From a virus, in UHGV virus genome UHGV-1292713: a stretch of 30,697 bases of DNA; one strand, written 5' to 3'. Each line of letters begins with the position of its first letter. Positions within the stretch are counted from its first letter, which is position 1. This document shows positions 1-29,523 of this stretch, piece by piece. The notes beneath the pieces were generated by a model that worked only from the letters and a program-made list of their open reading frames with translations, was not told the DNA's origin and did not search any database. The translations under genes were made by a program, and so were the position numbers.

Positions 1-632
1 GCAACCTGAGTAGCAAAAGCTGTTCATCCCCCATATTTTTGCTGGCGGGTTCTTTTTTCTACTGCCCTCCTCCCCAGGAAAAGCATTTCATTCTTTTCTC
101 ATTAATCGTTACTGGAGAGAAGGCGGGAAAAAGCCAGCTCTTTGGCCCTAAATAACAGCATGGCTTCAGTCCATACAGAATCTGATTTTCCAGCTCACAT
201 AATAACCAGATGATGCAGTTGCAAAATCTGGCAACATCGGATTATTATGCGCCTGTGAAAATTTCTTCACGTTTTATTCCTTGCCGCCCGTGCCTCCCAG
301 CGCGGGCTTTTTTATCCAAAAAATACCCCTCCGGAGAGGGGTATCATACAAGGGGATGACCATGATGCATGGTGCCGGGTGCCTCCCGGTGAGTCCGGCA
401 TCAGCATACGAACCCGCGATTATCCCAGAACTGACTGCTGATTCGCCCCGCCGCTTAGGGGGATTCACCATGCGTTTTTTTATTTACAAACTCTTCGCCA
501 GACAAACAACCATTAACTGGCTGAATTGTGAGGTATTTCAATTTTTAGAAAACTGACCAACCTCCGCTTATACGCCGGGCATGGAGCGGATACAAAAAAG
601 CCCCGCAAAAGCAGATCAGAAGGATTCGTTGT

Positions 633-671
633 AAAAAAAAAGCTGTCAGATTATCGCGCTAATCTGACAGC
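633..671 (-). terminator. Rho-independent terminator
   Basis: Perfect 12-bp inverted repeat gctgtcagatta / taatctgacagc (642-653, 660-671) with 6-nt loop; the plus-strand A9 run at 633-641 gives a U-tract after the hairpin on the minus strand. About 250 nt downstream of the 914..1975 gene. Confidence 0.7.
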
Positions 672-913
672 TACAGCAGGTATCCAAAAACATGGGTGGA
701 AACAATAAGTGAGTTAAGAAGACACGGTGTCGGATTTTTACCGATGAGCCGTTGGCGTGGTCAACCGTGACTCGCTTGTATCAACGATGAATTAATGAAG
801 CCAATCCTTTGCAGGCTATGTACAACCCACCACATCAGCCCTGCTGCATTGCAGGATACACTGTATCTGTAATCATTATACGGCACAGACATCCCACCAA
901 TAATTGAATTAAT

Positions 914-1975
914 TCACAAAATTGTATTTGCTGATAACATACTGATTTCCTGGATGGTCTGATTAAACCGCTCTGTCTCAAGCTCAACACCTAACGCCCG
1001 ACGCCCCAGCGCCATTGCTGCTTTTATTGTGGAACCGGATCCCATAAAGAAATCAGCAACCAGATCGCCGGGTCGACTACTGGCATTGATTATTTGCCTG
1101 AGCATATCCGCCGGTTTCTCACACGGATGTTTACCCGGGTAGAACTGAACGGGTTTATGCATCCAGACATCGGTATAAGGCACGGAGACTGATACGGAGA
1201 AATAGCGCCGGAGAGATTTAAACTCATCCAGCAATTCAGAATATTTGCGATTCAGTGAATCATAAGATGCCACCAACTGGTGGTGTGGTTGTTCCAGTTG
1301 TTGTTCCTGAAACTTCTCTGCCGCTATACGGGAAAACAGTGCCTGTAACTTCCGGTAGTCAGCCTCATTCGGCAACTGCCACTGACTGGCACCAAACCAG
1401 TGGGAAACCATATTTTTCTTACCTGTGGCTTCGGCAATTTGTTTTGCCGTTATACCCAGTTCGGCACGAGCATCCCTGAAATACGATATCAGCGGTGCCA
1501 TTATGTGCTGTTTGAGTTCCCTTTCTTTTGCCACATAGCCGTCACTTTTGCCGCGATATGGCCCCCGGTAATGTTCAGCAAACAGAACGCGCTCTGTGGC
1601 AGGAAAATATGCGCGCAGACTTTCTTTATTACACCCATTCCAACGTCCGGACGGCTTCGCCCAGATGATATGGTTAAGCACGTTGAAACGTTCACGCATC
1701 ATGATCTCAATATCAGATGCCAGGCGATGCCCACAGAACAGGTAAAGGCTTCCGGCAGGTTTCAACACCCGCCAGAACTGGGCCAGACAGTGGTCCAGCC
1801 ACTTAAGGTAATCTTCGTCCCCTTTCCACTGATTGTCCCAACCGTTGGGTTTCACCTTGAAGTAAGGCGGATCGGTAACAATCAGGTCAATGGAATCATC
1901 AGGCAGGGACTGAATAAAATGCAGGCAATCAGCGTTGATTAAATCAATACTGTTTATTTTTACAGTGTTTTTCAT
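914..1975 (-). CDS. DNA methyltransferase, beta-class amino-MTase (N6-adenine or N4-cytosine), orphan
   Basis: 353-aa ORF; DPPY motif near the N-terminus (IVTDPPYF) and FxGxG SAM-binding motif near the C-terminus (DFFMGSGST), the circularly permuted order typical of beta-class MTases. No adjacent restriction endonuclease ORF. Confidence 0.8.
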   Translation of the reverse strand: MKNTVKINSIDLINADCLHFIQSLPDDSIDLIVTDPPYFKVKPNGWDNQWKGDEDYLKWLDHCLAQFWRVLKPAGSLYLFCGHRLASDIEIMMRERFNVLNHIIWAKPSGRWNGCNKESLRAYFPATERVLFAEHYRGPYRGKSDGYVAKERELKQHIMAPLISYFRDARAELGITAKQIAEATGKKNMVSHWFGASQWQLPNEADYRKLQALFSRIAAEKFQEQQLEQPHHQLVASYDSLNRKYSELLDEFKSLRRYFSVSVSVPYTDVWMHKPVQFYPGKHPCEKPADMLRQIINASSRPGDLVADFFMGSGSTIKAAMALGRRALGVELETERFNQTIQEISMLSANTIL

Positions 1976-2124
1976 GGATCAGTAAGCGTAACTCTGGTAG
2001 GCTCACTCTGCTTTTGCGCTAAAGCAGTGGGCCATGGTTCGCTTGTGACCAGTAAGCATGAGCGAATGGCTGGCAGGTGCTACCAACACCCACCAGCCGC
2101 CCATTTTCACAAATTAAAAGCCCT

Positions 2125-2319
2125 TCATTGCTGAAGGCGTCTGTAACAGCCGAACTGGTAATCTGCCAGCCCCGCCATAACCAGCTGGGTCAGTATTAAC
2201 TGACAGCGTTCGCGTGAAAGGTATGTGTTTTGTGCTATCTCCCCGACTGTTGCCGGTTTGCCGTTTAATTCATTAAAAACAACTTTCGCCGTTTCTGTCA
2301 TATCTTGCTGTTTTAGCAT
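2125..2319 (-). CDS. Small hypothetical protein, possibly winged-helix DNA-binding
   Basis: 64-aa ORF with protein-like composition, between the methyltransferase and the 176-aa cargo gene; no recognisable motif. Confidence 0.4.
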   Translation of the reverse strand: MLKQQDMTETAKVVFNELNGKPATVGEIAQNTYLSRERCQLILTQLVMAGLADYQFGCYRRLQQ

Positions 2320-2442
2320 GTCTTTTTACCTTCATGGTTAACATGACATACCAATAACTCTTGTCTAAAAAGCCAGCAAGATAAAAAGTCAGTATTCACG
2401 ACCACCAGCGTGTTTACCGTACTGCACCAATGTTTAATTTAT

Positions 2443-2464
2443 AAAAAAACCGCGAGAACGCGGT
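2443..2464 (-). terminator. Rho-independent terminator downstream of the 176-aa gene
   Basis: Hairpin accgcg-agaa-cgcggt (2449-2464) with the plus-strand A-run at 2444-2449, giving a U-tract after the stem on the minus strand; about 40 nt after the stop at 2501. Confidence 0.6.
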
Positions 2465-2500
2465 AAGTATTGTTAAAAAAAAACAGTAATTTCACTCAAC

Positions 2501-3031
2501 TTATTTAATACATTCTTTTGCTTGCGCATAATAAATTTTATGAGTATTAGCAAGCTTAACGAAGTTATACTTAACTGCCCCTAACAGGGTTCCAACTCTT
2601 GTATGCCCTTCCATTAAATGAAGCCCTGTTGTATTACTTTTCAGCAAAGCTCGATCTATAAAAAATGGAGGTTCACACCATGTGCCAAAATTACACCAAT
2701 GCGCTTTTATTTCATCATCCATAAATACATCGCCTTTACGGGTTGTGAAATCTTCAACGACCTCATGCAAAAAATCAGGGTAAGTAGCATTATCCCCGAT
2801 AGTTAAAAAATTTTTAGTGGGAAGTTCAATCAATTTCCATTCGATTTGGTCAATATTAAGATCCCCATAAAGCTCCTGAAATCTGTCATAACCTGCCAAT
2901 CCATAATAAATCTCCTGAATTACAGGAGTGGGGGCGGCGATAGAATATTGCTCACGAAGTATTCTTTCAGCCTCAGGAGCTTTAAATATGGGTCTTTCTG
3001 AGAAAATAGGCAAAAGATCTCGGTATAACAT
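2501..3031 (-). CDS. Hypothetical protein, AT-rich cargo gene immediately downstream of Q and a tR'-like terminator
   Basis: 176-aa ORF with GGGGA Shine-Dalgarno 5 nt upstream of the ATG; locally AT-rich compared with flanking phage genes; no recognisable family motif. Confidence 0.6.
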   Translation of the reverse strand: MLYRDLLPIFSERPIFKAPEAERILREQYSIAAPTPVIQEIYYGLAGYDRFQELYGDLNIDQIEWKLIELPTKNFLTIGDNATYPDFLHEVVEDFTTRKGDVFMDDEIKAHWCNFGTWCEPPFFIDRALLKSNTTGLHLMEGHTRVGTLLGAVKYNFVKLANTHKIYYAQAKECIK

Positions 3032-3048
3032 CCATATCCCCGTGTAAG

Positions 3049-3080
3049 AAAAAATAATTTAACCCGCTCGGCGGCGGGTT
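3049..3080 (-). terminator. Rho-independent terminator downstream of Q (tR'-like)
   Basis: GC-rich hairpin aacccgc-cgccgag-cgggtt (3061-3080) followed on the minus strand by aaattatttttt (3049-3060). Lies about 105 nt after the Q stop and just before the RBS of the 176-aa gene. Confidence 0.55.
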
Positions 3081-3185
3081 CTTGGACTCATCAACGGTAG
3101 ACATACAAAGCCCATCGTTGGGAAAATCTTATCCATATTTTTTGAGAAATGCAAGCATCATGTCGCCATCTTCGGTGAAAATCAC

Positions 3186-3938
3186 TTATCTCGTCACCTT
3201 TCTCAATTGTGCTTCAGCGAATGCTTCTTCCTGCCAGCACTTTGTTACCAGTTTATCAATGACGTCTGCATATCCTTTGTACCACTGATAATCAGTCAGG
3301 TCTGGTACCAGCTTCTGGACATGACGTCGTGCCAGTGTGGTCGGTAAACGACTAAACCGGTTTCCATTGCAACGCCCACAAATCTTATAAACAGGCGCGC
3401 CATGAAGCCGGGTTCTTTTTTCATCCAGGACAATGCCTTTACCCTTACACCCTCTGCAAGCCGTGCTGACTTCTCCCTTACCATGGCAATGCTGACATAA
3501 TTCCTTCACCCACTCTTCCTTGATAACAGATTCCCCGCTTCTGGAGTGTTTCACCACTTCGCGCAATACACTATGAAATCCAGTACCAGCACAATGCTCA
3601 CAGCGAGCCTTACTTGCCGCAGACCTGGAATAATCAGCAAAGGCAAAACTCACAAGGTAAGGGATGATCTGTAACCGGGTTTCTTCACTCAATTTGTTCA
3701 ATGTCGGGTTATCCATTGCCATCGCGTAATTGAGCAGACCTTCAATCGCAAACTGAGGATCCTGAACACCAACTTTTGCCAGGAATAAGGCAAACCCAAG
3801 CGGTGCTTTCGACTGCACCATCCCCTGCGCAGCCATCACATCCGTAATCGTTAAACCACCTGAGCCTGTCGCCGGTGCGTCATCGCTCAATTTTGGAGAT
3901 TTTGGGGAGTAATATTTTGGTAAGGCTTCAAGGTTCAT
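3186..3938 (-). CDS. Late-gene antitermination protein Q (long, phage-82-like type)
   Basis: 250-aa ORF with clustered Cys/His zinc-binding motifs (CEHCAGTG, CQHCHGKG, CRGCKGKG, CGRCNG); sits between nin-region genes and a terminator-bracketed late cargo gene. Confidence 0.75.
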   Translation of the reverse strand: MNLEALPKYYSPKSPKLSDDAPATGSGGLTITDVMAAQGMVQSKAPLGFALFLAKVGVQDPQFAIEGLLNYAMAMDNPTLNKLSEETRLQIIPYLVSFAFADYSRSAASKARCEHCAGTGFHSVLREVVKHSRSGESVIKEEWVKELCQHCHGKGEVSTACRGCKGKGIVLDEKRTRLHGAPVYKICGRCNGNRFSRLPTTLARRHVQKLVPDLTDYQWYKGYADVIDKLVTKCWQEEAFAEAQLRKVTR

Positions 3939-3951
3939 GCTCGTTCTCCAC

Positions 3952-4947
3952 TTACGCCAGTACGCCTATTGCCAGCGCATGATCGATAAAACGAAATATC
4001 AGCTCCAGCTGGGAGCCATACATCTCTTCAAATGCCACGGTATCCGCATGCAGCTCGTCGTGATGCTTTCTGCACAAAGGCAACACAAAGAGGTCATGCG
4101 CTTTTGTACCCATTCCACCCTGACCATGGCCTATCAGGTGGTGGGGATCATCAGCAGGCTTTCCACAACATGCACACGGCTGTGTCTTAACCCAGCGCGT
4201 GTACTTTTCATTAACCCAGCGGCGACGTTTTGGGCGTAACATAAAAGACTCCGGCGACTCTGGCTCCACTTTCAGCGCCAGCACCTTTTTCGCTTTATCC
4301 TGGATAATGCTGGTGGCAGGAACCGAAGGAACAAGGTCACTCTCCCGGGTGACAGACGGCACAACCGGCTTCGGTAATCTCAGTGCCTTACGGGCTGCAC
4401 TTTCCGGTAAGGCATCCGCCAGGTCATTACGAACCAGCCACCAGCACAGTTCCGGCATTGTCACTACGTGACTGTCATCAAAACCGAGATCCCGACGCAC
4501 GACAGATAACACCCAGTGGGCACAGTTATCCGTTGCCATTGATTCCAGCCGTTCCGTGAACTGATCACGCAACTGGTTATCGCAGTGCCAACACAGACGA
4601 ATTGCGCCCGGCGCGTGTCGCATTGTGGTCATGTTCTCGCTGTGCCAGTCGGAATGAGGCCACTGACAGCCCTTTTCACGAAGTAACCAGCTTTCAAGAC
4701 ATTCCACGCCACCAGCACGACGGATCACTGCCTCATTGCGGAACACGGCCCGAACGGCAGGATCATCCGCCAGCGGTTGTGATGCCGCCGGAACGGCACC
4801 ACTGGCGAAAGATGAATAACGTTCCGGCTCAGGCTCCAGCAGGACACGCCCCTGCATAAACAGGGGCATCAGCTCTGAACCTGGCCTGAACAATACGATC
4901 CCCATACGCGGGGCAATTTCAGGGGTCAGTAGTGCTCTCACGGTCAC
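3952..4947 (-). CDS. DUF968-family phage protein with C-terminal Cys/His (HNH-like) motif
   Basis: 331-aa ORF; C-terminal CACCGK...HHLIGHGQGG...CRKHHDELH; position just upstream of Q is typical of lambdoid prophage DUF968 proteins. Confidence 0.55.
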   Translation of the reverse strand: MTVRALLTPEIAPRMGIVLFRPGSELMPLFMQGRVLLEPEPERYSSFASGAVPAASQPLADDPAVRAVFRNEAVIRRAGGVECLESWLLREKGCQWPHSDWHSENMTTMRHAPGAIRLCWHCDNQLRDQFTERLESMATDNCAHWVLSVVRRDLGFDDSHVVTMPELCWWLVRNDLADALPESAARKALRLPKPVVPSVTRESDLVPSVPATSIIQDKAKKVLALKVEPESPESFMLRPKRRRWVNEKYTRWVKTQPCACCGKPADDPHHLIGHGQGGMGTKAHDLFVLPLCRKHHDELHADTVAFEEMYGSQLELIFRFIDHALAIGVLA

Positions 4948-4948
4948 C

Positions 4949-5791
4949 TCAATGAACGGTATCGAGCAGCTTTAACAGCTCAGGGAATCGGGATTCGAAG
5001 AAATGCGGCTGCGTCTCGCGCGGATTTGCAGGACTGGTGATGTTCTTGCCGAACATGCAGCCTTTCGCCGTCAGCGACCAGAATTTTTTGATGTTGTTAA
5101 TCGCGGTACGGCTGTATCGTTCGCGTTGTTCAACGATCCCCAGCTTCACCATCTGGTGATATGCCTGATTAGCCGTCAGGCGGATACCATACTGTTTCAG
5201 CAGTGCACTCAGCGACAGCGTGGGGCGACTTGAGCCATCAGGCGCGTCAGCAGGAGCATCAATGGCATAGCGCGGTGCCAGATTCGGTAAGCCAACAGCC
5301 TCCTGAAGCTTCTGACAGGCTCCAAGCACTGATGACTTAGACAGGTTTAATTCCCGGCGCATAAAGTCCAGCAGGATCACGCCAGCCTGCATCTTGTCAG
5401 CAGCCTGCCCGGATAATTTTTCCGGTGTGCTGGTTACCATATCGAAAGTACGGATCACCTTCAGATGGAATGACGGGCTGATCCACATTGCATAGGCATA
5501 CACCAGTTCCTTGCAGACATACGTTCCTCCATTCCGCCCTTCTATTTTACTTACTGGTTTACTACCCAAATTTTGGGTAGTTTCATTGAATGAACCGACA
5601 CCCAAATTTTGGGTATCGATCAATTCCTGAACCAGCTCAGTAATCTGTTGGCTGGAAAGAAACTTTCCCGGCTCCTTAGTTCTGGCATTTGCACCAGATA
5701 CAACAGCAGCCCTGTGCAGATCGTTCAGGCTGTAACGACCATAAGCATCACGACGAACTTCAATACCATCAATGACCATCAGATTATTCAT
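4949..5791 (-). CDS. Phage antirepressor-like protein (KilA-N/AntA-like N-terminus, KilAC-like C-terminus)
   Basis: 280-aa ORF with a C-terminal region resembling the KilAC domain; nin-region position. Contains the palindrome triad at 5562-5614. Confidence 0.55.
   Translation of the reverse strand: MNNLMVIDGIEVRRDAYGRYSLNDLHRAAVVSGANARTKEPGKFLSSQQITELVQELIDTQNLGVGSFNETTQNLGSKPVSKIEGRNGGTYVCKELVYAYAMWISPSFHLKVIRTFDMVTSTPEKLSGQAADKMQAGVILLDFMRRELNLSKSSVLGACQKLQEAVGLPNLAPRYAIDAPADAPDGSSRPTLSLSALLKQYGIRLTANQAYHQMVKLGIVEQRERYSRTAINNIKKFWSLTAKGCMFGKNITSPANPRETQPHFFESRFPELLKLLDTVH
5562..5614. repeat. Three adjacent perfect palindromes inside the antirepressor coding sequence
   Basis: ctacccaaattttgggtag (5562-5580), ttcattgaatgaa (5582-5594), acccaaattttgggt (5600-5614); the two outer ones share the core cccaaattttggg and encode a duplicated TQNLG peptide. 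Confidence 0.6.
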
Positions 5792-5810
5792 ACTTCGTTT
5801 CTCCTCTTAA

Positions 5811-6200
5811 TCAGGCGGCTGCACCCGCCGGTTTCTCGTACTTACTGATAGTGATCTCGACCTTCCCTTCCGGGATAACCGGTCCCCACTCCACCAGCAT
5901 TCTTTTCACCTGACTGTCGTCTTCCCACACACCCGCATGGGTCAGGGCGTCAAACAGCGCCTTGTTATAGTTGTCCAGATCGCGGATCCGGTTATCCGGA
6001 GGAAACAACACGATCTCCACTGAAGCAGGTGCCGACGTTGGTTTCGGCAGACGACGTAACTGCTCAACTATTGCTGCGCACGCCGCGCTCTGGAATTTGC
6101 GCCCCGCTGCGCTTATCAGACTCTTACCAGCAAACGCCCCTTTGTTGGGGTGTCGCCAGTACGTGTTCACGCTGGGAGGGAAAGGCAAGATCAGCTTCAT
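5811..6200 (-). CDS. rusA: Holliday junction resolvase RusA
   Basis: 129-aa ORF with the RusA-type N-terminus (LPFPPSVNTYWRH) and acidic catalytic region (DLDNYNKALFDAL); typical nin-region position. Confidence 0.85.
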   Translation of the reverse strand: MKLILPFPPSVNTYWRHPNKGAFAGKSLISAAGRKFQSAACAAIVEQLRRLPKPTSAPASVEIVLFPPDNRIRDLDNYNKALFDALTHAGVWEDDSQVKRMLVEWGPVIPEGKVEITISKYEKPAGAAA

Positions 6201-6523: not shown

Positions 6524-7173
6524 GCCGCCATCTCCCTGACCAGTTTTTCCGCCTGCTGGCGAACCTGCGCCAGAAAGGCCTCACCACATGCCTCAAGTTC
6601 ATCGCGCCCGATGTAGCTGATTGCCGGTCCCTTCCAGGTCTTGTCGAAAACAGCAATAGCACCAGCGAAGAAAGCGCCTGTCGGCACCTGCTTCTCGTCC
6701 TTCGGGATAAACCAGGCTGGCAGTTCAAAACCAATACGCCCGCGAATAAAAGCAATATGGTCTGCATCTTCCGGCCACCACACTTCGCTGGTGGCAGCTT
6801 TGATCAGGAAAACATAGCGCCCGCCTTTATCACGCATGGCACTGGCATGCTTCATGATGTAACGCATGCCGGTGATGTATTGCCCCTCATGCTGACTGGC
6901 GCGGCTGTACGGGGGATTACCAAAGGCAGCACCTTTAAGCTCCGCAAGACGTTCTGACCAGTCATGCGCCAGCGCGTTGTCTTCCGCAGTGTAATACGCG
7001 GCGCATTTGGCGTTATCACCATCAGTAAACAGATCCAGAACAAACGGGCCAAACAGGGTGTTAATTCCCCAGAAAATGTTGTCCGGCGTGCGCCACTGAT
7101 CGCCCACTTCCTTCAGTTCATGGGCTGGTTTGTTCCGCAGCTCCACCAGCGCCTGGCAATATTTATTACTCAT
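6520..7173 (-). CDS. Phage N6-adenine DNA methyltransferase (Dam-like, NPPY motif)
   Basis: ORF-track frame 6520..7206; start assigned to the ATG at 7173 (MSNKYCQ...), which overlaps the upstream stop. Motif FGNPPYS. 217 aa. Confidence 0.75.
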   Translation of the reverse strand: MSNKYCQALVELRNKPAHELKEVGDQWRTPDNIFWGINTLFGPFVLDLFTDGDNAKCAAYYTAEDNALAHDWSERLAELKGAAFGNPPYSRASQHEGQYITGMRYIMKHASAMRDKGGRYVFLIKAATSEVWWPEDADHIAFIRGRIGFELPAWFIPKDEKQVPTGAFFAGAIAVFDKTWKGPAISYIGRDELEACGEAFLAQVRQQAEKLVREMAA

Positions 7174-7661
7174 TAAGCCCCCACGTAATTCCCTGACAGA
7201 TACCACTCTTCACCCGATGCAGCGCGCTTGCTGCTTTTCCGTAAACACCGCTCACGACGCGCAAGAAAATTGTTTCGCTCTTGCTGGGAGTGGCTTTCAC
7301 GGAATGCCGCCATCCACACCGTTGCAGCACGACGGTATAAGCCCCTGGACTCCAGTTCTTCCGCCTGGCGGGTCAGGCACAAAATCACCCGGGGATCGTT
7401 AGTGCCGACATAGAAATTGCGCACAGGTCTGGATTCACGAACTGGTTGCGGTTCCGGCTCCTGCGGTATCTCAGTCAGCCGCGGGAAATGTCTGCGTGTA
7501 TCCCCTTCACAACGGTGAGCCACACGCCCACTCTGACGTAACTTGCTTGCTGACTGCAGAACGCGCTGTCGTGAGTAACCTGCAAAAGCATCCGCAATGT
7601 CTCCGGAAGTACACCCCGGATGGGCTTCAATGAATTTCTGAACGTCATTCAAAAGACTCAT
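7173..7661 (-). CDS. PerC-like transcriptional regulator family protein
   Basis: ORF-track frame 7173..7667; C-terminal region AEELESRGLYRRAATVWMAAFRESH matches the PerC/Pch signature as I recall it. ATG at 7661 chosen; a GTG at 7667 is also possible. Confidence 0.45.
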   Translation of the reverse strand: MSLLNDVQKFIEAHPGCTSGDIADAFAGYSRQRVLQSASKLRQSGRVAHRCEGDTRRHFPRLTEIPQEPEPQPVRESRPVRNFYVGTNDPRVILCLTRQAEELESRGLYRRAATVWMAAFRESHSQQERNNFLARRERCLRKSSKRAASGEEWYLSGNYVGA

Positions 7662-9519: not shown

Positions 9520-9550
9520 CGTTCTGTGGTTAAAAATTGAAAGTGTTCTG

Positions 9551-9751
9551 CTAATCTTTCGGATAGATATCCGGTCTTAAGTCAGATTTCGTAATTGCAC
9601 CTGACGTGCATTGCTCAAGTTTTTTAGCCAGCACAAAACTGGCTTTTTTATAGCCATTGAAAACCAGCCGTAAGTAGCCAGGAGTTGAGCCAACTTTTCC
9701 GGCCAACTCGCCCTGCTGTTCTTTGGTTAAAGAGTCCCAATACGCTTTCAT
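9551..9751 (-). CDS. Cro-like / YdaS-family DNA-binding protein
   Basis: Start assigned to the ATG at 9751 (MKAYWDSLTKEQQGELAGKVGSTPGYLRLV...) with GGAGGT Shine-Dalgarno 9 nt upstream; divergent from the cI-like repressor. The ORF-track frame 9551..10054 extends upstream through non-protein-like sequence. Confidence 0.65.
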   Translation of the reverse strand: MKAYWDSLTKEQQGELAGKVGSTPGYLRLVFNGYKKASFVLAKKLEQCTSGAITKSDLRPDIYPKD

Positions 9752-10730: not shown

Positions 10731-11222
10731 CTACAGATTGCCGTTAAGTTTTCTGGACAACTCCTCAATGGATGGAGGCGATACGTAATCCGGATTTTTA
10801 TTCATCAGAAACTTATTTTCACAGTGGAGGCACCTGCTTTTATGAAAAAGCTCATCTTCGCTAACCGGGAATGGTTGAAGTATCGATACTATCTTTTGTC
10901 CAAAACATTTTGGGCAAAGATGCATGGTTATGCTGCCACCGTTCACGATTACCTCCTTCGAGTATACAAAAGTACCCGACTCAAGTTGGTTAAGGATATA
11001 GCCTTCCGTCTGAGCCTCAAAGTTTTCGAATTCTGCAATTTTAGCTTTGAGAGAAGCATTTATTTCTTGATAAGAGCCCACCAGTTCAACGAGAGACACG
11101 CATTCGCGCTGAATAGACGCAAGCTTTGAGTTCAGCTCACCAATAGCCGCATTTACTTCAGCTTGAGTTTTTGCCTCGTTCATTAGTTTTGCAATCTGGG
11201 CTGTTTCACGAATAGCCGTCAT
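10731..11222 (-). CDS. Hypothetical coiled-coil protein with C-terminal zinc ribbon, at the locus where lambda carries rexAB
   Basis: Start assigned to ATG at 11222 (MTAIRETAQ...), 164 aa; the ORF-track frame extends to 11510 through non-protein-like sequence. N-terminal ~80 aa predicted coiled coil; CPKC...CLHC pair; AT-rich; own terminator; convergent with cI. Confidence 0.6.
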   Translation of the reverse strand: MTAIRETAQIAKLMNEAKTQAEVNAAIGELNSKLASIQRECVSLVELVGSYQEINASLKAKIAEFENFEAQTEGYILNQLESGTFVYSKEVIVNGGSITMHLCPKCFGQKIVSILQPFPVSEDELFHKSRCLHCENKFLMNKNPDYVSPPSIEELSRKLNGNL

Positions 11223-14291: not shown

Positions 14292-14662
14292 TGGAGCCAT
14301 ACAGCCTCACACTCGATGAGGCCTGTCATTTTCTCAAAATATCCAGACCGACTGCCATTAACTGGATACGCACAGGCCGCCTACAGGCAACACGTAAAGA
14401 TCCAACCAAGCAAAAATCTCCTTACCTCACAACACGGCAAGCTTGCATTGCGGCGCTTCAGTCTCCGCTGCATACTGTCCAGGTGAGCGCGGGTGATGGC
14501 ATAACAGAGGAAAGAAAATGTCACTCTTCCGCAGAAATGAAATATGGTATGCCTCGTATTCGCTCCCGGGCGGGAAACGAATTAAGGAATCTCTTGGCAC
14601 AAAGGACAAGCGGCAAGCTCAGGAGTTGCACGACAAGCGAAAAGCAGAACTCTGGCGAGTAG
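14291..14662 (+). CDS. Excisionase-like (AlpA/Xis family HTH); 3' extent uncertain
   Basis: Start at ATG 14291 ([31 protein letters not shown]...), overlapping the upstream stop. The frame stays open to 14662, overlapping the integrase start at 14518; the functional product may be shorter. Confidence 0.45.
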
Positions 14663-15681
14663 AAAAGCTAGGGGATTTACCTGATGTCACTTTTGAAGAG
14701 GCCTGCCTAAGATGGCTTGAGGAAAAAGCTGATAAAAAATCTCTCGATTCAGATAAAAGCCGGATTGAGTTCTGGCTTGAACATTTTGAGGGTATAAGGC
14801 TTAAAGATATCTCGGAGGCAAAGATTTACTCTGCTGTAAGCAGAATGCATAACAGAAAGACGAAAGAAATATGGAAACAGAAAGTTCAGGCCGCCATCAG
14901 GAAAGGTAAAGAACCGCCTGTTTATGAACCAAAGCCAGTATCAACTCAGACAAAGGCAAAGCATCTTGCCATGATAAAGGCCATTCTCCGTGCTGCAGAA
15001 CGCGACTGGAAGTGGCTGGAAAAAGCGCCTGTCATCAAGATACCAGCGGTCAGAAACAAGCGAGTCAGATGGCTGGAAAAGGAGGAAGCAAAACGCCTTA
15101 TTGATGAGTGCCCCGAACCACTGAAATCTGTCGTCAAGTTTGCGCTGGCAACTGGTCTGAGAAAGTCGAACATCATAAATCTGGAATGGCAACAAATCGA
15201 CATGCAGCGACGAGTTGCCTGGGTGAATCCAGAAGAGAGCAAATCAAACCGCGCCATTGGTGTGGCGCTGAACGATACCGCCTGTAAAGTGTTGCGTGAT
15301 CAAATAGGCAAGCATCACAAATGGGTGTTTGTACATACCAAGGCGGCTAAGCGAGCAGATGGAACATCAACGCCTGCGGTCAGGAAGATGCGCATCGACA
15401 GCAAGACATCATGGCTATCAGCTTGTCGTCGTGCAGGAATTGAAGATTTCCGTTTCCATGACCTCAGACACACCTGGGCAAGCTGGCTGATCCAGTCAGG
15501 CGTCCCATTATCTGTGCTTCAGGAAATGGGCGGATGGGAGTCCATAGAAATGGTTCGTAGGTATGCTCACCTTGCGCCTAATCATTTGACAGAGCATGCA
15601 AGGAAAATAGACGACATTTTTGGTGATAATGTCCCAAATATGTCCCACTGTGGAATTATGGAGGATATAAAGAAGGCGTAA
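14518..15681 (+). CDS. int: Tyrosine site-specific integrase (DLP12 IntD-like, tRNA-Arg-targeting)
   Basis: 387-aa ORF with the C-terminal catalytic signature ([10 protein letters not shown]...VRRYAHL); immediately followed by a tRNA-Arg 3' fragment. Confidence 0.9.
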
Positions 15682-21789: not shown

Positions 21790-22365
21790 CTACGGTAGGG
21801 CTGGCCATTCAATATCCGGTGCAGTTGATGTATCAACACGATTCAGCAACACCCGATACTTTTTCCAGGCTTCCAGCAACAAGGTTTCTTTCTCCGTTGC
21901 GATCTCCAGATCCACAGCATCCTGAAGCGGCGCTATATGCTCACTGGCTACCTGCATCAGGCTGTTTTTTGTTTCTTCCGCCTCCCGGATCCGGAACAGT
22001 TTTTCTGCTTCCGTATCCTTCACCCAGGCTGTGCCGTTCCACTTCTGAAACTCCCCTTCCGGGGATAACCAGGTGACATTTTCCGGTAATGAGCCGAGTT
22101 CAGAAATAAATAACGCGTCGCCGGAAGCCACGTCATAAACCGTTTTACCCCGATGATCTTCAACGAGATGCCACGATGACTCATCACTGTTGAAAACAGC
22201 CACGAAACCAGCCGGAATATCTGGCGGTGCAATATCGGTACTGTTTGCTGGCAGACCTGTATGAGGCGGAATATATGCATCACCTTCACCAATAAATTCA
22301 TTAGTTCCGGACAGCAGATTATAAATTTTTATGGTCCGTGGTTGTTCACTCATTCTGAATGCCAT
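21790..22365 (-). CDS. tfa: Tail fibre assembly protein (Tfa)
   Basis: 191-aa ORF overlapping the stf stop (TAATG); conserved Tfa C-terminus. Confidence 0.8.
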
Positions 22366-25300
22366 TATGCAAGCCTCACAATATAGTTAAATGCGATGTT
22401 TTTGACGGTGTTTTCCGCGTTACCAGCAGCGTTAACGGTGATGGTGTGTCCATGTGAGCCAATCGCAACCGAGTGCGTATGAGCACCAATACCGACAGTA
22501 TGTGCGTGAGCACCTGCAGATGCAGCTGTGCCGCTGACACTATGAGTGTGCGCTCCTGCAGCACTTGTATTCACACTGGCCGCAGACACTACCTTATGTA
22601 CTGACCCATTTTGTGACCACTGGCTGACTGCTGATGCGCCTGTGACACTATGAGTATGGTTTCCGGCACTTGCGGCTGTACCGCTCACACTGTGCGTATG
22701 CGCCCCGATGTTATTCGTGGATTTAGTGCCGTAATCAAACGACGATGTGGTTTTCGTCCCCAAATCCGTACTGGATGCGCTGGCGCTGTGGGTGTGCGAT
22801 TTAATGCCGTCCTGTTCCTGAGACAATACAGCCCGACCACTGGCAGGTTTGCCCTTAATCGTCCAGCCACGCATATCAGGGATCACGCCTGACGGATAAG
22901 CGGCTGCAAGTTTCGGGTATGCAGATTTGTCAAAAGTCTGCCCCTGCATCAGGGCATAACCAGACGGAACGGTATCTGATGGCCACGGGATTGGTGCACC
23001 GACTGGATAAAACTCTGCAGGAGGATGAGCTGAGGTGTAAAGCTGCGCCCACGGCGACCAGTTTGCGTCGGTCGTATCCCGTCGTGAACGAATAAATGCC
23101 GGAGCATGAGCACCGCTTGTACCACTCCAGCCGATGAGTAACTCACCTTCGCCAACGGCTGTCATCCCTTTCAGGTGAATGATATTTCCATACACTGTTG
23201 GATATCCGTTGTTATACACCTCGTATAACTCAAGACCTGTTGCCCCCTGCGTATTGTCTGTCAGCGCGATTACCCGACCTTTTGAAGCCAGATTAACTGA
23301 TGATACTGCTGTTCCACCTGACGGTAACGCCCCGATCTCTGATGCCGTTGGCTTATTTCTGGAGTTATAGTCCCTTCGCCAGCCAGGTGAATAATCTGTT
23401 CCGTGATTAATATAGGTAAGCTGAGCGTTAGTTGTTCCACCACCAGTGGAGGTGGTCGGTGTGGTAATGCGGATCGTCATCGCTGACTTTATCCCCATTA
23501 CTTCAATGACAGCTCCGGCGAGATGAATATTACCGCAGCCAGTATCAGTAATGATTTTATTATTGCCATAAGACCAGGAACCCTTGCACATCCAGTATGG
23601 ATGGTTAAATGCTCCCTGAGAATCCAGCCACTCGATAAACTGTGCAGTCGTCCAGTCTCCTGTTGTTGTGCTTACTGACCCACAGAAGGCGCGGCAGGCA
23701 CCAATATTTTTCGTAAAGGTGTCTTTGCCAGGGATATCCGCACCGTTCTGATCTTTCTGCAGACGTTTCTCAGCATTGTCATTGGCTGCTTTTACTGCCT
23801 TTGGCGTTGCCGCCAGCGTTTCAGACGTGCTGTTGGTCGCGCTGCTGAGCTGAACTATCCCTTTCTGTGCTGTCGTTGCATCCTGTGCGGTGTATTTCCC
23901 GTTAGCCAGGTCATACGCGGCCTTAACTGCTTTTGGCGTTGCCGCCAGTGACTCGGAAGTGCTGTCGATCGCACTGCTGAGCTGTACTATCCCCTTTTTC
24001 GTCGTGCTCGCATCCTCAAGCGCCACGGCGGATGCAATATCCTCTGCCCGTTTTGCTGCTGTCTCAGCGCGCGTTGCCGCGGATTCTGCTGTACTTTTGC
24101 TCTGTGCTGCCGCCGTCGCACTGCCAGCTGCCTCTGTCGCCTTCGTGGATGCCGTCGTGGCGCTGCCCTTCGCTGCTGACGCCTGTCTGGTCGCCTCATC
24201 TTTTGAAGCAGACGCAGATGATGCCGATGACGCCGCCGAACTGGCTGACGATGCGGCTGCCGTTTTTGAGGATTCTGCACTGGTTTCCGACGCTTTCGCA
24301 TTCGTTTCGGATGTCTTCGCTGCGGATGCAGACCTCGCTGCTGCGCTGGCCTGTTCAGCGGCTTCGCCAGCCTTCGTTGTAGCTGTTGAAGCGGACGATG
24401 CAGCGCTTTCTGCCGATTTTCCGGCGGCAGTGGCACTGGCTGAGGCCTGCCCGGCACTTGTTGACGCTGCACTGGCAGACGACGCAGCCGCTGTTTTTGA
24501 GCCTGCTGCTGCGGAGGCACTCTGTTCCGCTGCCGTTTCAGAAGCCTTGGCGTTCGTCTCGGACGTTTTTGCCGCCTTCGCGGAATTTCCTGCCGCCGTA
24601 GCCGAGGAAGCTGCGCTGCTGGCGCTCGAGGCTGCGTTCGTTTCTGATGATTTTGCCGCCTCTTTTGAAGCCGACGCATCCCGTGCTGAAGTGGCTGCTT
24701 CTGACGCTTTCGTGGTCGCGGTGGATGCAGAAGTGGCTGCTGATTGTTGTGACGCTGCCGCATTCGTTTCTGACGTTTTTGCCGTAGCGGCACTGGTGGC
24801 CGCCGCGCTTTTTGAGGACTCTGCAGCGGCAGCACTTTTTGATGCTTCAGTGGCCTTTGCTGATGCCGTTCCTGCGCTGGAAGACGCTGACTGAGCCGAC
24901 GAAGCGGCCTGTCCGGCTGACGTGCTGGCTGCGCGTGCTGAGCCTGCAGCATCAGTCGCATGGGTTGCCGCCTCACGGGCTGATGTGCTGGCATCGCTGG
25001 CTGACTTCTTCGCGGCTGCTGTGTTCTGTGCCACCGCGGACGCGTTACGCGCCACCTCTTCCACCATCAGTTCAAAACGTCTCAGTGCCTCCGGACGGGC
25101 ATCATCCTCCGTCATGGCACCGAGAAAATCATTCAGCGTACCGGGTTGAGAATCTTCATACACGGTGATGGTCCCGGCATGTGACGGCGGGAATCCCTCC
25201 ACCAACAGAATAACGCTGTACTGACCGTACTCAACGTCCATACTGTAACGCCCGGCTTCATCCGGATTTTCTGAGGCCAGCGTGTTCACCACCACCGTGT

Positions 25301-25391
25301 TGCTGTTACGTTTTGCTTTCAGCTGGATTGTGCAGTTCTGTACCGGTTTTCCTGTGCCGTCTTTCAGTACACCTGAAATCTTTACTGCCAT
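22365..25391 (-). CDS. stf: Side tail fibre protein (lambda Stf-like), with Ala/Ser-rich repeat region and C-terminal HTHS repeats
   Basis: Start assigned to ATG 25391 ([12 protein letters not shown]..., as in lambda Stf as I recall it); the ORF track begins 2 codons upstream at a GTG. Long Ala/Ser/Thr-rich low-complexity core and GAHTHSVSG repeats near the C-terminus. Confidence 0.85.
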
Positions 25392-25402
25392 ATTCACCCC
25401 AC

Positions 25403-25428
25403 AAAAAAGCCCGCCTGAACCGGCGGGC
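25403..25428 (-). terminator. Rho-independent terminator between lom and stf
   Basis: gcccgcc-ggttca-ggcgggc hairpin on the minus strand followed by T6 (plus-strand A-run 25403-25408). Confidence 0.6.
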
Positions 25429-25455
25429 TGTCATAACACTGTGTTACCTGGCTAA

Positions 25456-26055
25456 TCAGAATTTATAACCGACACCCACGATGAAACCGTCAGTGCGCCA
25501 GTCACCACTGCCTGAGCCTTCATAAGCAATATCAATGGCCACGGATTCGGTCGGGTTAAACTGCACGCCAGCCCCCCACGCCAGAGACGTGTTGCTGTGG
25601 CGACCGTCATCACTTCCGGTCAGCACATCGTGCTTTTTCCCCTTGTTGTCAGTTACGCGGATATAATCTCCGGAGAAAGTCGAAACACGGCTGTAAGCCA
25701 CACCCGCCATCGCATACGCGCTGAACCATTCATTCACGCGCACAGACGGCCCCGCCATCACGCTGAACCAGCGGTTACGCACGGAATCTTCATGCCAGCG
25801 GGTATCGCTGTAATGAGTCAGCTGGCGATTCTTGTCTTCTGCATAGCTGAATGACGTCACCATCCCCAGCGTGTCCGTAAACTCATAACGGTATTTCACG
25901 TTAATCCCGTTAAGATCATCACTGCCGGGAACGTTGGTCCGGGCATGAAGATACCCCGCGCTCAGCGTGGACTGATGTTCAGACGCCCATGCAGGCGCAC
26001 AGGATACGGCCAGACAAATGGCTGCGGACAAAATGGCGGCATAAAGTTTACGCAT
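25456..26055 (-). CDS. lom: Lom/Ail/PagC-family outer membrane beta-barrel protein
   Basis: 199-aa ORF with signal peptide; C-terminus AYEGSGSGDWRTDGFIVGVGYKF matches lambda Lom as I recall it; sits between J and stf as in lambda. Confidence 0.85.
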   Translation of the reverse strand: MRKLYAAILSAAICLAVSCAPAWASEHQSTLSAGYLHARTNVPGSDDLNGINVKYRYEFTDTLGMVTSFSYAEDKNRQLTHYSDTRWHEDSVRNRWFSVMAGPSVRVNEWFSAYAMAGVAYSRVSTFSGDYIRVTDNKGKKHDVLTGSDDGRHSNTSLAWGAGVQFNPTESVAIDIAYEGSGSGDWRTDGFIVGVGYKF

Positions 26056-26078
26056 AATTACCTCTCGCTTTTCTGCAA

Positions 26079-26103
26079 TAAAAAAGGCGTCATTTCTGAC
26101 GCC
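26079..26103 (-). terminator. Rho-independent terminator between J and lom
   Basis: ggcgtca-gaaa-tgacgcc hairpin on the minus strand followed by ttttttatt. Confidence 0.6.
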
Positions 26104-26121
26104 CGTTATGGGTTATAAAAT

Positions 26122-29523
<3,402 letters not shown>

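Follow-up and report, generated by a model that had tools for sequence, protein, structure and literature searches.

What is the short AT-rich gene that lies immediately after the Q antiterminator gene in the UHGV virus genome UHGV-1292713, how does it come to be transcribed, and what may its product do? In our study, a stretch of 30,697 nt of this genome was analysed (the window, by which the whole stretch is always meant), in which the transcripts of all the genes around the feature run on the minus strand. The locus is a lambda-like E. coli prophage carrying a single-gene insert in its late leader. The joint explanation that accounts best for the findings is that this gene, the open reading frame (ORF) ORF176, was inserted at the terminator tR', is expressed leakily from the late promoter PR' with a boost by Q, and encodes a protein with a nucleoside triphosphate (NTP)-dependent role in the conflict between phage and host; as a whole it is given slightly better than even chances. 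The genetic architecture is well supported by the comparison with related prophages, and the leaky expression is what we infer from the anatomy of the two terminators. The elements that carry the argument are as follows.

3186 to 3938, minus strand: Q antiterminator gene, 250 aa, lambda-Q family (PF03589 match and lambda Q alignment)
3126 to 3154, minus strand: late promoter PR' in the lambda layout, with -35 TTGCAT (3154-3149), a 17-nt spacer and -10 TAAGAT (3131-3126)
3111 to 3119, minus strand: 9-mer AACGATGGG, 6 nt past the -10, identical to lambda and at the same distance
3061 to 3080, minus strand: tR' hairpin AACCCGC-CGCCGA-GCGGGTT (terminator scan and alignment of relatives)
2436 to 3060, minus strand: AT-rich cassette (moron) of ~625 bp, holding 5' untranslated region (UTR) with ribosome-binding site, ORF176, 3' UTR and terminator (empty-site alignment)
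3037 to 3041, minus strand: ribosome-binding site GGGGA, 5 nt ahead of the ATG (from the sequence)
2501 to 3031, minus strand: ORF176, ATG start, 176 aa
2442 to 2464, minus strand: cassette terminator ACCGCG-TTCT-CGCGGT followed by T7 (terminator scan and tail score)

The acquired nature of the gene was established by alignment to an empty site. The otherwise near-identical prophage BS15R-A has the same Q, PR', tR', 64-aa ORF (ORF64) and methyltransferase gene, with nothing between the hairpin and ORF64. Homology to this site ends right after the tR' stem and resumes ~13 nt past the T7 of the second terminator, which places the cassette at ~2436-3060. The base composition is equally distinct, ORF176 having 36.9% GC (28% at third codon positions, GC3) against 47.8% (GC3 45%) for Q and 48.7% for the window, and the stretch 2432-3060, nearly identical to the cassette, having 35.8%. 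The same site holds a different 141-aa gene in M45, a 111-aa gene followed directly by the holin in NU14, and cspB/cspF in K-12 Qin, so that together with the empty BS15R-A site it is recognized as a cargo hot spot. With its presence or absence at sharp junctions, foreign composition and own terminator, the cassette is a single-gene moron in the Q-lysis hot spot, which is a known phenomenon. The original prediction of an AT-rich acquired cargo gene, lying between two hairpins downstream of Q at the position where Stx phages carry stx, is thus borne out by the ORF call, the terminator scan and the empty site, the gene being placed between Q/PR'/tR' and the lysis cassette on the same strand. The cassette was found in 90 of 5426 E. 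coli genomes (1.7%), with the reading frame intact in all 90; a 96%-identical allele occurs in 8 genomes, one of which (PS1Thumoskin9) was aligned. The M45 cargo is itself bracketed by a direct repeat of the entire tR' hairpin and its T tract (alignment columns ~120-150 and ~835-865), a pattern that suggests cargo exchange or insertion using or duplicating the terminator.

The Q protein matches PF03589 at 1.7e-53 and aligns to lambda Q over its full length in BLASTP (35% identity, E 4e-43). It differs from lambda Q in a 48-aa Cys-rich insertion at residues ~122-169, where additional CxxC/CxxCxGxG motifs and a weak DnaJ central-domain match (2.8e-07) resemble a second zinc-finger-like module. 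Downstream of Q, a pair of promoter-like hexamers had been noted earlier as a weak -35/-10 candidate, and it scores under the threshold of the scan tool. Lambda PR', read from NC_001416, consists of TTGACT, 17 nt, TAAATT, 6 nt and AACGATGGG. In the prophage, the promoter was found to be kept in all four aligned related prophages and in the 96% variant, with AACGATGGG invariant in the same set. As the block is conserved in every aligned related prophage, the earlier candidate has to be redefined: on sequence grounds the hexamers are the conserved late promoter PR' with the lambda pause element. In lambda, PR' is constitutive and AACGAT is a -10-like element; it causes the sigma70-dependent pause close to the promoter during which Q is loaded. 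The initial transcribed region of the window thus carries the corresponding -10-like element, the pausing itself being putative. The window therefore resembles the lambda leader, which runs from PR' through the 6S RNA to tR', in Q homology, promoter geometry, and the identity and distance of AACGATGGG. It differs in that the leader up to the hairpin is only ~40-60 nt, the lambda 6S RNA being 194 nt, and in that the leader has in effect been enlarged to hold a protein-coding gene.

The upstream hairpin has a 7-bp stem (folding free energy, dG, -10.6) and lies ~40 nt past the promoter and pause block; the ATG of ORF176 follows 29 nt beyond its end. In BS15R-A, M45 and NU14 the identical stem is followed by T7 or T5 and makes a proper tR', at which the constitutive PR' transcript would normally end, whereas in the window the contiguous T tract is replaced by AAATTATTTTTT (3060-3049). 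The cassette terminator consists of a stem at 2464-2449 (dG -9.2, z -3.0) and a T7 at 2448-2442. Tail scores, calculated in the style of TransTermHP, were as follows.

Upstream hairpin of the window: -2.2 (-3.4 with the shorter stem)
BS15R-A copy of the hairpin, at the empty site: -4.9 to -5.7
Cassette terminator: -5.3 to -5.7
Lambda tR': -4.6

The second strong terminator that had been predicted downstream of the gene is therefore real in its anatomy, its tail being of the same quality as that of lambda tR'. Of the tR'-like terminator predicted before the gene, the hairpin is present, ending 29 nt before the ATG, and the T tract is replaced and the element weakened. We infer a weakened or vestigial tR', perhaps selected no longer. 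In the PS1Thumoskin9 allele an added stem mismatch brings the hairpin to dG -6.8 as compared to -10.6, while the allele keeps PR', the pause element and the cassette terminator as they are in the window (2442-2464 identical). The cassette terminator has probably taken the place of tR' in function and would now guard the downstream late genes. The window thus displays, at base-pair resolution, a cargo gene slotted onto tR' together with a replacement terminator that would hold the lysis genes silent. A hairpin of the form AA(A)CCCGC-N5/6-GCGGGTT(T) was also observed, nearly alike, in prophages with unrelated Q families, namely lambda-type Q in E. coli (window 3061-3080) and PF06323-type Q in Klebsiella (locus L027, 4951-4972) and Hafnia (locus L015, 7425-7445).

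A promoter of the cassette itself downstream of the hairpin was considered and rejected, only 29 nt, which also hold the ribosome-binding site, being available before the ATG. As these 29 nt leave no promoter space, transcription of ORF176 has to come from PR' or from upstream read-through. In the lysogen, polymerase starting at PR' would partly pass the weakened hairpin and give an mRNA of ~680 nt ending at the cassette terminator, and this stop would prevent expression of ORF64, the methyltransferase and the lysis genes. Once the prophage is induced, polymerase modified by Q would pass both terminators, which would make ORF176 the late gene transcribed first and most abundantly. The possible gain for the cassette is Q-independent expression from a constitutive late promoter. 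The Q-dependent late expression that had been proposed fits the position of the gene, and its strict form is doubtful as the T tract of tR' is replaced. Similarly, the description as monocistronic would hold only without Q, as transcription by Q-modified polymerase should extend over ORF64, the methyltransferase and the lysis genes. Compared with stx of Stx phages and the cspB/cspF morons of K-12 Qin, the cassette is alike in occupying the slot past Q, PR' and tR' and before the holin, and shares with lambdoid Q-lysis morons the foreign base composition, presence/absence polymorphism and own terminator. It differs from the stx and csp morons in having no promoter of its own, in the loss of the tR' T tract and in lying within the PR' leader.

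ORF176 is a protein of 20.5 kDa, acidic (pI 5.4) and predicted to be cytoplasmic, and its start Met is supported by homologues starting at the same residue. Neither a signal peptide nor a membrane segment was found in it, the maximum 19-residue hydropathy being 0.55, and on this value a secreted or membrane product was rejected; nothing therefore supports an Stx-like toxin, and the predicted cytoplasmic location sets the product apart from Stx-type cargo. Relatives with ~50% identity occur in Escherichia, Salmonella, Klebsiella, Citrobacter, Enterobacter, Kluyvera and Hafnia. A profile search over 1.84 billion representatives returned 286 clusters at E<=1e-3, mostly of 165-185 aa, and a second search added members in marine Gammaproteobacteria, Halarcobacter and others. 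Among 105 sequences, W112, W118, P122, L139, E141, G142, H143, R145 and G151 are invariant, and the motif E141-G142-H143-T144-R145 (EGHTR) is conserved. In the PHROGs collection ORF176 matches only the unnamed family phrog_8867, and ORF176 and the family profiles gave no match in Pfam, NCBIfam, PADLOC or PDB sequences. A blastn search of 50,697 phage records gave no match, and tblastn gave one Salmonella prophage record; a literature search on the RefSeq protein accession returned nothing. Longer family members contain no recurrent fused Pfam domain, and weak CUE and DUF1281 matches in a few members were taken as noise. The neighbours of the Psychromonas and Thalassomonas homologues were tried as paralogues and rejected.

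The protein had been described as having no recognizable motif, and this part of the original prediction did not survive. The stretch PPxFI...LHLxEGHTRxGxLxG of ORF176 resembles the ParB strand-loop-strand-helix bearing GERRxRA. A confident AlphaFold2 (AF2) model (predicted local distance difference test, pLDDT, 92.3; predicted template modelling score, pTM, 0.88) has a structural core similar to the solved ParB-N and sulfiredoxin (Srx) domains. A first AF2 model from 16 sequences (pLDDT 80), independent and weaker, gave weak and consistently ParB/Srx matches, and so agrees with the later one on the family of matches. With moderate confidence, the C-terminal two thirds of the protein (residues ~58-176) are predicted to adopt a divergent ParB/Srx NTP-binding fold behind an N-terminal four-helix region (~1-57). 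With the same moderate confidence, G142 and R145, invariant in the 105 sequences, are predicted to fall within the GxxR phosphate-binding motif (Box II), where the strand passes into the helix. H143 would occupy the position of the ParB GERR glutamate, which is catalytic in ParB, and of the sulfiredoxin cysteine; this placement comes from register reasoning and not from a computed alignment. A sulfiredoxin function was rejected because there is no catalytic Cys, the GGCHR position being taken by the invariant His143 according to the register, and in hhalign against human sulfiredoxin the motif was not aligned and the match was not significant.

Within the ParB/Srx superfamily, ORF176 was compared with PadC, pNOB8 ParB-N, sulfiredoxin, SerK/SbnI, the DUF262 domain of BrxU/SspE, Osa and ToxB. 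It differs from these in its motif, which is E-G-H-T-R and not GERR, GGCHR or DGQQR, in having no Box III, helix-turn-helix, nuclease partner domain or catalytic Cys, and in its N-terminal four-helix region, which is unique. A recent survey of the fold, seeded with PF02195, reports that some phage members are short and have one domain only, and that prophages frequently carry ParB fused to a methyltransferase (PMC12704722); its PF02195 seed does not detect the ORF176 family. The family, which is Pfam-less and hitherto uncharacterised, is with moderate confidence a new branch of this known, predicted fold. A Pfam-invisible family would thereby be added to an expanding NTP-binding superfamily, whose members, as recent work shows, include switches, kinases, defence sensors and even toxins.

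In 25 IMG/VR contigs, the family gene directly follows Q in all 24 that are enterobacterial viral contigs, behind a lambda-type Q in 13 and a PF06323-type Q in 11, the two types having no detectable similarity to each other. In the Klebsiella relative the gene is preceded by an intact hairpin with T6 and separated from the holin by a second terminator; in the Salmonella one the preceding hairpin is degenerate and a T7 terminator follows the gene; in Hafnia the gene starts 35 nt past Q and a tR'-like hairpin lies ~900 nt beyond. Near the family gene in Hafnia (L015-L017) and Klebsiella (L027, L028), an opposite-strand ORF of 197 aa was also seen (6622-7215, minus, in L015; 6967-7560, minus, in L027), for which no Pfam match was found.

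Distant members occupy other settings, outside prophages. In Endozoicomonas sp. 8E the gene forms a cassette followed by an attC-like imperfect palindrome, GCATAAC...GTTATGC. The attC-like palindromes of this locus (L024) lie at 6536-6612, 4854-4924, 9535-9605 and ~10992-11022; they follow the family gene as well as neighbouring GNAT and TacT genes, which suggests an integron array interrupted by insertion sequence elements. Another member is inserted between hsdS and hsdR of a type I restriction-modification (R-M) operon, overlapping the end of hsdS by 14 nt (L031, 6001-6510); Abi_2, YgjP-like and T5orf172 genes are nearby. The Accumulibacter member adjoins a reverse transcriptase and HsdR, the Halomonas member adjoins the BREX genes PglZ/BrxL, and some members lie beside integrases or transposases. 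The family is thus similar to integron-cassette and defence-island single-gene cargo in its attC cassette, hsdS/hsdR insert, and BREX and reverse transcriptase neighbours, and it differs from defence-island cargo in lacking a PADLOC match and in the housekeeping neighbours of some members.

The predicted fold, the invariant motif at the nucleotide pocket and the mobility as a single gene (in prophage leaders, an integron-type array and R-M/BREX surroundings) most likely point to an NTP-dependent role in conflict. Judged by its contexts alone, ORF176 would most likely bind or hydrolyse NTP on its own and take part in the phage-host conflict, its most plausible task being to protect the lysogen against other phages. 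A more specific version is that the family is a hitherto unrecognised module in which one protein suffices for defence or abortive infection, built on a minimal ParB/Srx NTPase fold. It would spread as phage morons, integron cassettes and R-M operon inserts, having here captured the PR' leader for low constitutive expression in lysogens with a Q boost. In this full form the proposal is tentative and, on balance, unlikely.

A number of results weigh against the joint explanation. For the fold, EGHTR was aligned to GERR when hhalign was run on a ParB-N alignment derived from PDB sequences, with an E of 0.06 and a probability <1% only, and Foldseek gave E 0.17. PF02195 and the other Pfam models matched none of the 117 members, and a PDB search with the family profile gave no match. 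For the role, the PADLOC 2.0 defence models match 0 families for ORF176, and several distant homologues lie among housekeeping genes, which makes the defence-island association anecdotal and not statistical. Further, no conserved partner gene indicating a pathway was found in the contexts examined, and the protein presumably works alone. For the expression, appreciable termination may still take place at a GC hairpin with an AU-rich tail, so that expression in the lysogen can only be presumed. The upstream terminator is intact in Klebsiella, and in Hafnia no hairpin intervenes between Q and the gene, so that the weakened tR' is specific to this E. coli cassette; the original picture of a gene bracketed by two terminators fits the Klebsiella relative, where both are intact, better than it fits the window.

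The strongest competitor takes ORF176 as a strictly Q-dependent late gene behind an upstream hairpin that would still terminate with efficiency; the gene would be silent in lysogens, expressed on induction only, and would serve the phage, for instance in anti-defence or in DNA protection or modification alongside the downstream N6/N4 methyltransferase. The position directly after Q in 24/24 viral contigs and the intact terminators on both sides in Klebsiella are what such a gene would be expected to show. ParB-fold domains are also often fused to N6_N4 methyltransferases in phages (PMC12704722), and in both the E. coli and the Hafnia loci the second gene downstream encodes a methyltransferase. 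However, the T tract of tR' is replaced in the window and the hairpin decays further in the sister lineage; the integron-cassette and R-M-operon copies are host-side contexts; and the methyltransferase occurs without ORF176, as does ORF176 without the methyltransferase in Klebsiella, Salmonella and the non-phage contexts. An obligatory methyltransferase partnership was rejected on this last ground, each gene occurring without the other, and the strictly late, phage-serving gene is considered unlikely, if still a serious contender.

A growth-arresting ATPase effector comparable to the contact-dependent inhibition (CDI) toxin ToxB, a minimal ParB-fold ATPase, would serve abortive infection or late host shut-down. 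Potent, ATP-dependent toxicity of a minimal ParB fold is reported for ToxB (bioRxiv 10.64898/2026.05.05.722872), and close terminators on either side would be fitting for a product harmful when over-expressed. Against it stand the lack of an adjacent immunity or antitoxin gene in the cassette and in any context examined, and the stable carriage of the stand-alone gene beside housekeeping genes in some bacteria, which leave this proposal with a small probability. A hitch-hiking or decaying frame without current function, flanked by hairpins that arose by chance, agrees with the purely hypothetical annotation and the presence in 1.7% of E. coli genomes, but is very improbable given the frame intact in 90/90 genomes, the ~50% identity across genera, the invariant residues in 105 sequences, the confident fold prediction and the homology of the hairpins to the tR' of relatives.

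The joint explanation, that is insertion at tR', leaky PR'-driven and Q-boosted expression and an NTP-dependent conflict role, therefore remains the one preferred here. Lambdoid prophages carry their conversion genes, Stx among them, in the stretch that separates Q from the lysis genes. The strict placement of this family after either of two unrelated Q types, together with its occurrence in integron and R-M surroundings, makes it a cheap and well-defined experimental candidate.

Around the cassette, the order of transcription on the minus strand is the DUF968 gene (4947-3952), Q, a spacer of 154 nt, ORF176, the hairpin with T7, the 64-aa ORF and the methyltransferase. The neighbouring genes are the following.

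4947-3952, minus strand: DUF968 gene, upstream of Q
2319-2125, minus strand: ORF64, a 64-aa ORF downstream of the cassette
1975-914, minus strand: N6/N4 DNA methyltransferase, downstream of ORF64

The identity of ORF64 with lambda orf-64 was considered and rejected, no homology being found. The terminator scan gave 23 terminator-like sites in positions 1-6000, against 6.1 +/- 2.8 in shuffles. Strong minus-strand terminators also lie at 672-641 and 345-322, between the methyltransferase and the holin, which fits a Q-dependent late operon. No tRNA genes of the kind present in Stx phages were found. Amid the dense terminator-like hairpins between the methyltransferase and the lysis genes (672-641, 345-322), a match to the small RNA STnc100 (Rfam RF02076) was obtained at 314-502 on the minus strand, scoring 114.5 bits where the gathering score is 47. 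Away from the feature, in the window's second half, IS009 (Rfam RF02111) matches at 21824-22022 on the minus strand with 216 bits. A 387-aa ORF at 14518-15681 on the plus strand is presumed to be an integrase and is followed by ORFs that are not phage-like, and the minus-strand region 22365-29520 holds long ORFs of 1010 and 1132 aa resembling tail-fibre or host-specificity genes. The window thus seems to cover one prophage end plus part of another element.

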